From Escherichia coli (GTDB lineage Bacteria; Pseudomonadota; Gammaproteobacteria; Enterobacterales; Enterobacteriaceae), in NCBI RefSeq assembly GCF_003790525.1, contig NZ_CP033635.1: a stretch of 64,000 nucleotides of DNA, one strand, 5' to 3'. Position numbers and translations under genes: made by a program. Shown one piece after another: positions 27,378-54,424 of the stretch. Below the pieces are notes generated by a model that saw only the letters and a list, made by a program, of their open reading frames with translations, was not told where the DNA came from and made no database searches. How positions within the stretch are numbered: position 1 is the stretch's first letter; each line of letters starts with the position of its first letter.

Positions 27378-27584
27378 AAAAAAACGCCTGCTCTTATTAC
27401 GGAGCAGGCGTTAAAACAGGTCTGTATGACAACAAGTGGGTGCTTCACTCAACGTTGTGTCCATGGTGTCTGATGAGGCATAAGCGACATCTGTCAGTGG
27501 ACGATAAGCACCGTAAACGGCTCTGCGTCATTCCGGAGTTTATGAGGCACTAAGGCGAACATAAGAGATGGAATGAGCATCTAC
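27378..27584 (-). ncRNA. glmZ: Small RNA GlmZ (activator of glmS translation)
   Basis: Minus strand begins GTAGATGCTCATTCCATCTCTTATGTTCGCC and ends with the hairpin AACGCCTGCTCCGTAATAAGAGCAGGCGTTTTTTT, matching the GlmZ sequence as I recall it; located between hemY and aslA. Confidence 0.85.
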
Positions 27585-31188: not shown

Positions 31189-31265
31189 TGGTCGGCGAGA
31201 GAGGATTCGAACCTCCGACCCACTGGTCCCAAACCAGTTGCGCTACCAAGCTGCGCTACTCGCCG
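31189..31265 (-). tRNA. proM: tRNA-Pro (anticodon UGG)
   Basis: Minus strand CGGCGAGTAGCGCAGCTTGGTAGCGCAACTGGTTTGGGACCAGTGGGTCGGAGGTTCGAATCCTCTCTCGCCGACCA; cloverleaf with anticodon TGG and encoded CCA. Confidence 0.95.
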
Positions 31266-31307
31266 AAATACTGCTTTTTGAATTTTTAGTTCAATTCTTT
31301 AAAGTCG

Positions 31308-31394
31308 TGGTGCGAGGGGGGGGACTTGAACCCCCACGTCCGTAAGGACACTAACACCTGAAGCTAGCGCGTCTACCAATTCCGCCACCTTCGC
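31308..31394 (-). tRNA. leuT: tRNA-Leu (anticodon CAG)
   Basis: Minus strand GCGAAGGTGGCGGAATTGGTAGACGCGCTAGCTTCAGGTGTTAG...CTCGCACCA; long variable arm, anticodon CAG. Confidence 0.95.
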
Positions 31395-31414
31395 ATTGTC
31401 ACAACTTCTAATAA

Positions 31415-31491
31415 TGGGGTGGCTAATGGGATTCGAACCCACGACAACTGGAATCACAATCCAGGGCTCTACCAACTGAGCTATAGCCACC
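31415..31491 (-). tRNA. hisR: tRNA-His (anticodon GUG)
   Basis: Minus strand GGTGGCTATAGCTCAGTTGGTAGAGCCCTGGATTGTGATTCCAG...GCCACCCCA; includes the extra 5' G typical of tRNA-His. Confidence 0.95.
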
Positions 31492-31548
31492 ACTACAAAT
31501 CTTGTTACGCGGTATTACTACCACCGCAGCTCAAGCGCCGGGACTAAA

Positions 31549-31625
<77 letters not shown>

Positions 31626-47909: not shown

Positions 47910-48239
47910 TTACGCCAGGTTAGCGTCGAGGAACTCTTTCAACTGACCTTTAGACAGTGCGCCCACTTTGGTTGCCGCCACTTCACCGTTTTTGAACAGC
48001 AGCAGAGTCGGGATACCACGGATGCCATATTTCGGCGCAGTGCCAGGGTTTTGATCGATGTTCAGTTTTGCAACGGTCAGTTTGCCCTGATATTCGTCAG
48101 CGATTTCATCCAGAATCGGGGCGATCATTTTGCACGGACCGCACCACTCTGCCCAGAAATCAACGAGGATCGCCCCGTCCGCTTTGAGTACATCCGTGTC
48201 AAAACTGTCGTCAGTCAGGTGAATAATTTTATCGCTCAT
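47910..48239 (-). CDS. trxA: Thioredoxin 1
   Basis: ORF trimmed to [37 protein letters not shown] (109 aa, active site CGPC). Confidence 0.95.
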
Positions 48240-48369
48240 ATATAACTCCACAGGAATAAGCCTGGCGTGTTGGTTTCGTTGTTGGTGTAACATTAACCAA
48301 CTAAAGGTTGACTTTATTTCACCGGATACGCTTTCGTAAAGCAATAGTAAGCTGATATTCTACCACACT

Positions 48370-53323: not shown

Positions 53324-53540
53324 AGGTATATTGCTCAATCTTCGAACGGGGGGGAGGATTGTAGCAGAATCGCATTTGAATGTGACCGAGTGAAAACCGC
53401 TAACCGGATGGCTGCGGATGTTTAAATCAGAGAGGGAAGGCCGAAACCGGAGTTCATCATGAATCCATTAGACTTAGAAAATATCGGGTCGTAACGTTGT
53501 GTTATTACTTTTTCAGAGTTTACTAAGGAGAGGTTTACTC

Positions 53541-53990
53541 GTGGCGATTAATTTCAGCCCCAAGGTTGGTGAAATACTGGAATGCAACTTTGGTAACTAT
53601 CCTGTTAGCCAGAATGGACAGTTCAGCACGACGTATTACGATGGCCGCATTCCACCTGAGATGATAAAAAATAGGTTGGTTGTCGTGCTCAACGGAAAAA
53701 TTAATGGCAACGCATGTATCGTCGTTCCATTATCAACCACTCGCGACCATGACAAGTTAAATCGTGGAATGCATGTTGAAATAGCCAGTAATGTTATCAA
53801 TGACCTGCAATTCTTTGATCAGCAGATACGTTGGGCTAAAGCCGACCTGGTACAACAAGTCAGTCGAAATCGATTAAACAGAGCAAGGACTTATCGGGGG
53901 TATCTTAATCAATGTTTGCCACATGAGTTGGTTGCAGACATACAGAGGGCAGTCATCAAGTCAATCAATGCCATATCGCTCATAAATTGA
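53541..53990 (+). CDS. yifN: PemK/MazF-like toxin-family protein YifN (apparently intact)
   Basis: GTG at 53541 preceded by aaggagag (53525..53532); the translation has MazF/PemK-like motif spacing (VGEILECNF, RLVVVLNG, ACIVVPLSTT). The 163-aa track ORF from 53499 is an alternative start. Confidence 0.6.
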   Translation: MAINFSPKVGEILECNFGNYPVSQNGQFSTTYYDGRIPPEMIKNRLVVVLNGKINGNACIVVPLSTTRDHDKLNRGMHVEIASNVINDLQFFDQQIRWAKADLVQQVSRNRLNRARTYRGYLNQCLPHELVADIQRAVIKSINAISLIN

Positions 53991-54066
53991 CAATAAAATC
54001 ACCATCCCCGATAATGACTCTGTAGCCCATAGAGGCCCTAAGTTTTCTCCCCTTGAGGGACCTGCG

Positions 54067-54090
54067 AAGCCCGGATTTTCCGGGCTTTTG
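54067..54090 (+). terminator. Putative rho-independent terminator after yifN
   Basis: agcccgg-attttc-cgggct hairpin followed by TTTTG. Confidence 0.5.
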
Positions 54091-54118
54091 CCATATATGT
54101 CCCCCCCTCCCTGACTGA

Positions 54119-54424
<306 letters not shown>

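Follow-up and report, generated by a model that had tools for sequence, protein, structure and literature searches.

yifN of Escherichia coli is paired with a small RNA gene and probably forms with it a new kind of protein-RNA toxin-antitoxin module

The gene yifN lies between rep and ppiC in the stretch of Escherichia coli DNA analysed here, 64,000 nt of contig NZ_CP033635.1 (assembly GCF_003790525.1; hereafter the window), and encodes a protein of the PemK/MazF toxin fold. It had been singled out from the sequence as an orphan toxin, that is, an apparently intact PemK/MazF-like gene with no visible antitoxin partner (hereafter the original prediction). We find that a separately promoted small RNA gene follows it at 54022-54095 and co-occurs with every assessable intact member of the family, and the orphan description therefore does not fit. 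The pair is probably a new kind of protein-RNA toxin-antitoxin module, found in most E. coli. More specifically, and by a modest preference, sequence comparison leads us to favour a type III-like module in which a MazF/PemK toxin would be held in check by a separately transcribed RNA antitoxin. What the analysis establishes is the fold and the conserved residues of the protein, its lack of a protein partner, the RNA gene with promoter, structure and conservation, the strict co-occurrence of this gene with yifN and the one-sided decay of the pair.

The small RNA gene and its pairing with yifN

The gene and the elements of the RNA are located in the window as follows.

53541-53990, plus strand: coding region of yifN, with a GTG start, 149 codons and a stop; MazF/PemK fold, YifN subfamily (from the list of open reading frames (ORFs), the start used by the Prokaryotic Genome Annotation Pipeline (PGAP), Pfam and an AlphaFold2 model).
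53987-54015, plus strand: promoter of the small RNA; -35 TTGACA at 53987-53992, 17-nt spacer, -10 GATAAT at 54010-54015, matching 11 of 12 consensus positions.
54022-54095, plus strand: small non-coding RNA gene, ~70 nt (covariance model R1); the transcript probably ends near 54089-54092.
54025-54036, plus strand: hairpin A, GCC-CAUAGA-GGC; three pairs invariant in a 27-sequence alignment.
54049-54059, plus strand: hairpin B, CCC-CUUGA-GGG, a degenerate second unit ~24 nt after hairpin A; 93.8% of cells paired, two pairs compensatory.
54066-54092, plus strand: intrinsic terminator, a stem of 54066-54074 with 54080-54088 followed by a U-run; ten paired positions, six compensatory.

A promoter scan placed the near-consensus sigma-70 promoter of the small RNA across the yifN stop codon. 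An equivalent promoter was found at a fixed distance in 34/34 loci (-35 TTGAnn, spacer of 16-18 nt). In 32 of them the -10 element ends 6-7 nt ahead of the first nucleotide of the RNA; in the remaining two this distance is 4 nt. The mean promoter match was 9.35 out of 12, against 5.49 at control positions, and a match of at least 9 was reached in 68% of loci compared with 0.8% of controls. The covariance model R1, built from an alignment of 27 distinct RNA copies, has a single match in the window (80.3 bits, E 8.5e-17). The ~72-nt stretch folds better than all of 200 shuffles (z -3.1), and across the whole structure 92.9% of cells are paired, a pairing that collapses when the 3′ partners are slid. 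Moreover, 34 cells are changed on both sides of a pair, compared with 8.9 in shuffled alignments, a value reached by none of 500 shuffles; most of this covariation is in the terminator. The RNA is also well conserved at the level of sequence. Superficieibacter has it with ~97% identity, in spite of divergence in the promoter spacer, in the flanks and at synonymous sites of yifN, and it is 100% identical in 8 E. coli alleles, although the synonymous divergence (dS) of yifN among them reaches 0.17.

A northern blot of K-12 has detected a small RNA ‘downstream of yifN on the same strand’ (PMC4681348). The legend to Fig 7 of that paper reads ‘downstream of yifN (b3775)’; in the current K-12 record b3775 is ppiC and yifN is b3777. 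The blotted RNA is likely to be the one at 54022-54095. Rfam 15 has no family for this RNA, either at the window locus or at 10 related ones, and no RNA gene is annotated between yifN and ppiC in the RefSeq K-12 record. Two other identities for the region were rejected. A small peptide is not encoded, as the region holds a 3-codon ORF at most and its indels between species are not multiples of three, and an integron attC-type or other recombination site would not account for the conserved geometry of the promoter, for a terminator with a U-run or for the signal on the published blot. The other RNAs of the window (GlmZ, four tRNAs, a TrxA 5′ untranslated region (5′-UTR) thermometer and a Rev39 5′-UTR element) are all on the minus strand, within 27378-27584, 31192-31625, 48210-48309 and 63319-63608, and none is near yifN.

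A nucleotide search with a single sequence found the element directly 3′ of a yifN homologue in nearly all loci, and a search of 86 sequence sources with R1 returned one full-length match per YifN-clade locus (E 1e-21 to 3e-3). The match almost always lies 30-100 nt after the stop codon, on the same strand as yifN. In a Shewanella locus (L045) it is on the opposite strand and abuts the stop codon; a Massilia locus (L052) has one copy ~800 nt upstream on the opposite strand, and a Herbaspirillum locus (L055) has two tandem copies ~800-1000 nt upstream, again on the opposite strand. Because these inverted or moved RNA genes have stayed nearby, the RNA appears to act in trans.

Eighty five loci contained a YifN-clade match, with 65 intact genes, of which 64 could be assessed (one contig ends 42 nt after the stop codon). 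A full-length R1 match accompanied 63 of these 64, the last being a Pasteurellaceae plasmid with a variant tandem-repeat RNA, such that an intact YifN-clade gene without the RNA was seen in 0/64 loci. The pairing holds on chromosomes, plasmids and metagenomic contigs. The association was also examined in the reverse direction, by searching metagenome contigs with a 17-mer from the RNA. This returned 80 loci, 16 of which match R1; yifN was immediately upstream in 16/16 of the R1-matching contigs and in 0/64 of the chance matches.

Decay of the pair runs in one direction. At least 13 loci contain a yifN gene broken by frameshift or truncation next to an intact RNA, and the lesions are of at least 6 independent origins, E. 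coli contributing four types, Serratia quinivorans one and Photorhabdus one or two. Loci lacking the RNA, on the other hand, keep just short N-terminal remnants of yifN. This is the pattern expected if loss of the RNA is harmful solely while the protein is functional.

Homologues of 27-38% identity share the layout of a gene followed by an RNA, with clearer repeats: 2-3 perfect tandem RNA repeats with a period of 24-27 nt occupy the same position. Plasmids of Vibrio and Acinetobacter carry two copies of UAGCCGCAAGGCAAGUU with a 24-nt period and plasmid Drgb7 carries two copies of UUGGCCGAAAGGCAC, the hairpin in all of these being GCC-GNRA-GGC. Pasteurellaceae plasmids carry two copies of UCGGCAUAGACCGCU, which corresponds to E. 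coli hairpin A with its three pairs swapped (CGG-CAUAGA-CCG), and Roseateles chitinivorans has three copies with a 27-nt period. Relatives from alphaproteobacteria and viral contigs are followed by a longer RNA with several hairpins, a promoter and a terminator; these RNAs share the motifs UUAAG(U/A)CC and (G/A)CAAG, and one of their hairpins covaries in two pairs. A consensus fold computed for the RNAs of distant homologues from a sequence-only alignment recovered one covarying hairpin, with the remaining stems misaligned. Of three arbitrarily chosen superfamily members, two have the architecture of a gene with a downstream RNA and the third is ambiguous.

The YifN protein and the absence of a protein antitoxin

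Further features of the gene and of its locus are listed here.

53499-53501, plus strand: upstream in-frame GTG giving a 163-aa form; not conserved (ORF list and comparison with Superficieibacter).
53525-53533, plus strand: Shine-Dalgarno sequence AAGGAGAGG of yifN, read from the sequence and kept in K-12 and Superficieibacter.
53750, plus strand: T in codon His70, deleted in K-12 yifN with a resulting frameshift (alignment and K-12 sequence).
53373-54093, no strand: approximate extent of the module of yifN and RNA that is missing in ST131/B2-type E. coli (boundaries set by eye from the flank alignment).

The ORF at 53499-53990 (plus strand) encodes 163 aa from the GTG at 53499, or 149 aa if translation starts in frame at GTG 53541. 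E. coli AR_0013 matches the region with 100% identity, and in that genome PGAP starts the protein (WP_000996698.1, ‘type II toxin-antitoxin system PemK/MazF family toxin’) at the equivalent of 53541, between rep and ppiC. The original prediction had proposed this location, and a GTG start at 53541 behind a good ribosome-binding site, and both agree with the annotation of the identical genome and with AAGGAGAGG at 53525-53533. It had also described the frame as open for 149 to 163 codons; both frames are indeed open, but the longer one is not conserved, since in Superficieibacter the GTG at 53499 is ATT and the gene has its own ATG at the position of the 149-codon start. The N-terminus MAINFSPKVG is conserved across 35 homologues, all of which start M-A/P-I-x-F/Y-x-P-K-x-G, and judged by these sequences the conserved start of yifN is the 149-codon one. 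A preprint on retapamulin ribosome profiling reports that the annotated and an upstream in-frame start of yifN are both used in E. coli (10.1101/520783). An 11-codon ATG ORF at 53459-53494 is not conserved as such, its start being GTG in K-12 and TTG in Superficieibacter.

A profile search confirmed the proposed likeness to PemK/MazF. YifN matches Pfam PF02452 (PemK_toxin) at 42.7 bits (E 7e-11; cut-off 23.1), with residues 51-155 of the 163-aa form aligned to profile positions 14-108 of 109, and at E <=10 the Pfam scan gave in addition only a weak IMS match. No NCBIfam model matches YifN and PADLOC gave no match for it. An AlphaFold2 model (mean local confidence, pLDDT, 76.4; predicted template modelling score, pTM, 0.71; low-confidence loop at residues 31-42) was compared with solved structures by Foldseek, and the top 50 matches were all MazF toxins, with probability 1.0 and target TM-scores of 0.62-0.79. 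Most of these share 14-16% identity with YifN, falling to 9% among the weakest matches. Searches of solved structures by sequence were empty both for the single sequence and for a YifN-clade profile; a broad superfamily profile reaches solved MazF chains (Staphylococcus aureus MazF) at E 0.005.

Comparison of profiles with E. coli MazF (E 1e-4) aligns E40 with E24, R45 with R29 and S65 with T52. The last equivalence is less certain, as near S65 the alignment with S. aureus MazF is 2 residues out of register. In E. coli MazF, R29 and T52 are catalytic and E24A is an attenuating mutation. Residues E40, K43, R45, S65, W98 and R111 of YifN do not vary among 32 superfamily sequences whose identity goes down to 28%. 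The original prediction had left room for a catalytically dead protein. YifN does not look dead by its sequence: death is unlikely because the equivalents of E24, R29 and T52 are invariant across the superfamily and because the ratio of nonsynonymous to synonymous divergence (dN/dS) is ~0.05. The YifN clade also has an insertion of 20-30 residues between strands 1 and 2, modelled with low confidence, relative to relatives of ~140 aa.

Protein searches gave 147 clusters at E <=0.001, of which the 120 best listed are 44-98% identical to YifN of the window. They come from Enterobacterales, Pseudomonas, Aeromonas, Shewanella and Roseateles, and are named by JGI ‘uncharacterized protein YifN (PemK superfamily)’. 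The family is sporadic, found in ~60 of 100,044 species (one genome per species), a lower bound given that the species scan was pattern-based. The broad profile recovers 674 clusters (50% identity) at E <=1e-10 among 1.84 billion representatives. YifN also matches phrog_15698 over its full length (E 2.4e-32), a phage family with no assigned function and no recorded RNA partner.

For 200 bp before yifN and 150 bp after it, the ORF list contains nothing of antitoxin size. When every ORF of >=40 aa lying no more than 600 bp from the gene was clustered for 60 loci, no family of neighbours recurred across lineages, and none of 10 adjacent upstream ORFs of homologues had an antitoxin-type Pfam domain. 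In about half of the loci, no ORF on the same strand ends close to the start codon of yifN. The reported lack of a MazE/PemI-type gene beside yifN was thus correct, and because none was found across the 60 loci it is a property of the whole YifN clade.

Distribution in E. coli and genomic neighbourhoods

The yifN locus is present in ~3983 of 5426 complete E. coli genomes (~73%). The toxin gene and the RNA are missing together from ~1440 of the 5426 (ST131/B2 type), in which rep and ppiC are separated by 86 bp; the empty site was seen in the ST131 locus L015. Superficieibacter has the module at the same rep-ppiC site, and the empty site may reflect either loss in B2 or gain elsewhere.

In K-12 MG1655, yifN (b3777) is a pseudogene in RefSeq, and the PGAP annotation of an MG1655 derivative gives it as ‘frameshifted’. 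K-12 and the window share gene and locus, at 96% DNA identity, the window copy being intact and the K-12 allele 1 bp short. The disruption, which the original prediction had mentioned, was placed by alignment at the T at 53750 in codon 70, and the tblastn alignment breaks at residues 70/71. An exact 45-mer spanning this deletion occurs in 1228 of the 5426 complete genomes. An intact 149-aa yifN was nevertheless found in 6/6 sampled non-K-12 strains, O157:H7 EDL933 included, and, given also how widespread the locus is, an intact copy is not the unusual state that it had been taken for. Against other E. coli alleles, yifN of the window has a dS of ~0.17 and a dN/dS of 0.03-0.06; against Superficieibacter electus, where YifN is 86% identical, dS is 1.5-1.9 and dN/dS is 0.05. 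The low dN/dS and the widespread lesions together indicate a gene that is under strong purifying selection while intact, though it is often inactivated.

The rep-yifN-ppiC allele of the window (53339-54142) is of a minority type, with 541 genomes at >=99% identity and 3473 at 95-99%, and lacks a stretch of ~44 bp that is present just before ppiC in K-12. These features suggest a divergent lineage or import by recombination. The intact allele of EDL933 (L208) carries Q27P, C59F, N74K and A101T; as C59 and A101 fall in the conserved motifs ACIVVP and WAKAD, this YifN may be attenuated. An apparent alternative allele in E. coli HH97 (L003, NZ_CP116409.1, ~215.8-216.6 kb; window 53470-54100) was set aside as a likely base-calling or assembly artefact. 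The region is G-rich and colinear with yifN, with many A, T and C read as G, and PGAP annotates nothing there.

Outside Escherichia and Superficieibacter the context changes. The gene is next to mutS in Photorhabdus, has unrelated neighbours in Serratia and Roseateles, and is flanked by IS91 on E. coli plasmids from pigs. On pCAR1-type Pseudomonas plasmids and integrative elements (L004-L007, L014) the yifN-like gene and the RNA are part of a long same-strand array. This array consists of small hypothetical genes and an orphan N6 DNA methylase, and resembles a plasmid leading or establishment region. Two loci are complete small plasmids (Glaesserella pHN61, L013, and an Actinobacillus plasmid, L082), and the contigs of L045, L052 and L055 have replication-type genes. 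In these five the yifN-like gene follows a plasmid-type gene at a distance of ~20 nt or less: the gap is 3 nt where that gene encodes a primase C-terminal domain protein or a resolvase and 4 nt where it encodes a Rep_3 initiator, and in two loci its product is an HTH_36/DnaD_N protein. Relatives of YifN were also found on 32 viral contigs and on prophage-like elements of Vibrio. Eleven 13-kb Vibrio elements of Vinavirales type (L214, phage 10N.239.311.A09_PE001, PQ189296.1) have a 27%-identical YifN-like gene at one end of the genome. It follows a gene for a CI-like helix-turn-helix (HTH) protein and a fragment of an S24 peptidase gene, and is itself followed by short repeated hairpins.

Interpretation of the pair

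With the type II systems MazEF, PemIK (Kis-Kid) and ChpBIK, yifN shares PF02452, the fold and the equivalents of the catalytic Glu, Arg and Thr/Ser. The position of yifN-like genes beside replication genes on small plasmids is a further likeness, as kis-kid (parD) adjoins repA on plasmid R1. However, there is no adjacent gene for a protein antitoxin, either here or in the 60 related loci, and YifN has 149 aa rather than ~110 aa, with a long insertion between beta1 and beta2.

The type III systems ToxIN, CptIN and TenpIN likewise have a toxin gene beside a small structured RNA of repeated units and no protein antitoxin, and occur on plasmids, phages and chromosomes as the yifN family does; the fold of ToxN is related to that of Kid/MazF. 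YifN differs in matching PemK_toxin rather than the ToxN, CptN or TenpN families. The RNAs differ as well, those of type III forming pseudoknots from repeats of 36-45 nt whereas the E. coli yifN RNA has two degenerate mini-hairpins. The order that defines type III is promoter, repeats, terminator and toxin, with the RNA upstream in the toxin operon (PMC12283969), but the yifN RNA is downstream of the toxin gene and has its own promoter. Because the gene order and the toxin family both fall outside that definition, we describe the pair as type III-like and not as a member of the three known families. Identity with TenpIN, suspected from the Photorhabdus homologues, was rejected: TenpN is uncommon in E. 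coli, with just 24 sequences reported from the species (PMC12283969) whereas ~73% of genomes have yifN; the TenpIN RNA is upstream; and YifN matches PemK.

Under the type III-like reading, YifN would be a MazF/Kid-fold toxin of the endoribonuclease type that keeps E40, R45 and S65. The strong separate promoter would give constant production of a ~70-nt RNA with two short GC hairpin units, and this RNA would bind the YifN dimer and block the toxin, which is the way ToxIN and other type III systems work. Each of the two hairpin units might correspond to one of the two sites in a dimer of MazF type. In biological terms the module may serve in plasmid or prophage addiction, or in defence against phages.

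Several points weigh against this reading. The toxicity of YifN, its cleavage of RNA and its binding of the small RNA are inferences rather than experimental results. Gene order and a separate promoter set the pair apart from every described type III family, and the E. coli RNA, with its two degenerate hairpin units, has no detectable direct repeat. Within the clade hairpin A does not vary, which leaves its pairing supported solely by comparison with more distant groups. Some distant homologues have, in addition to the downstream RNA, a small upstream gene with an HTH domain or of unknown type, a candidate for a conventional antitoxin. Lastly, strict co-occurrence is also expected if the RNA is a substrate or a cofactor of the protein.

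This last point leads to the main rival, in which the RNA is the substrate or cofactor of YifN in a non-toxic ribonucleoprotein. YifN would then not arrest growth, being instead dedicated to processing, binding or protecting the RNA, and either the ribonucleoprotein or the RNA would be the working part, for example as a regulator or a defence sensor. The strict pairing and the conservation of the RNA also fit such a partnership, as does the strong purifying selection on the protein gene, and the continued expression of the RNA in K-12, where the gene is broken, leaves room for an RNA with a role of its own. We nevertheless consider it rather unlikely. The protein gene has been inactivated repeatedly and independently with the RNA kept, and never the reverse, which a costly toxin explains better; the module sits directly after plasmid replication genes and on phage elements, a placement typical of addiction and defence toxins; and the catalytic residues of MazF are retained.

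We regard as improbable the alternative that YifN is a true orphan after all, kept harmless by low expression, by a protein antitoxin acting in trans (for example MazE or ChpS) or by self-inhibition through the enlarged beta1-beta2 loop, and that the downstream element is no more than the terminator of the gene or a recombination site belonging to a mobile cassette. The absence of an adjacent protein antitoxin and the insertion of 20-30 residues between strands 1 and 2 speak for it. It leaves unexplained, however, the promoter conserved at a fixed distance in 34/34 loci and the northern signal, as well as an RNA conserved well above synonymous sites that remains close to the gene despite inversion or movement. 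Moreover, relatives without the loop insertion also have a structured RNA downstream, and the family spans many genera that share no trans antitoxin.

A type I-like RNA antitoxin that pairs with the yifN mRNA and blocks its translation, for example through a C-rich stretch on the Shine-Dalgarno sequence, is very improbable: the RNA does contain UCUCCCCUU, partly complementary to AAGGAGAGG, and a 7-nt match between its 5′ end and codons W98-A99-K100, but duplexes with the start region are no stronger than with random windows (mean z +0.16, 22 loci), complementarity of 7-10 nt is at chance level and not conserved (the 7-nt match is lost in the K-12 allele), and a C-rich anti-Shine-Dalgarno stretch is missing from the repeat RNAs that accompany distant homologues. 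The yifN RNA is on the same strand as the gene, and so is not cis-antisense.

The gene yifN itself is known and annotated. No description of the RNA gene, or of its obligate pairing with a MazF/PemK subfamily, was found in Rfam 15, PADLOC, the RefSeq K-12 record or the searchable literature, and literature searches found no MazF/PemK toxin with an RNA antitoxin. MazF and PemK toxins are the classic examples of type II, where the antitoxin is a protein. A 2025 survey recognises toxIN, cptIN and tenpIN as the only type III families. We put at about even the chance that the pair is a fourth protein-RNA (type III-like) family and the first with a bona fide MazF/PemK toxin, in reversed gene order, spread over Alpha-, Beta- and Gammaproteobacteria, plasmids, phages and ~3/4 of E. 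coli, with K-12 retaining a dead toxin and a live RNA.

If this is true, it would explain many of the database entries labelled ‘orphan PemK/MazF toxin’. The pair is compact and easily tested, as natural strains exist in the ‘empty’ (B2), ‘dead toxin’ (K-12) and ‘intact’ states. Members of the family lie directly after plasmid replication genes and close phage immunity operons, a placement that suggests roles in maintaining plasmids or prophages or in defence against phages. The known inventory of E. coli, K-12 included, would grow by one toxin-antitoxin or defence module and by one conserved small RNA.

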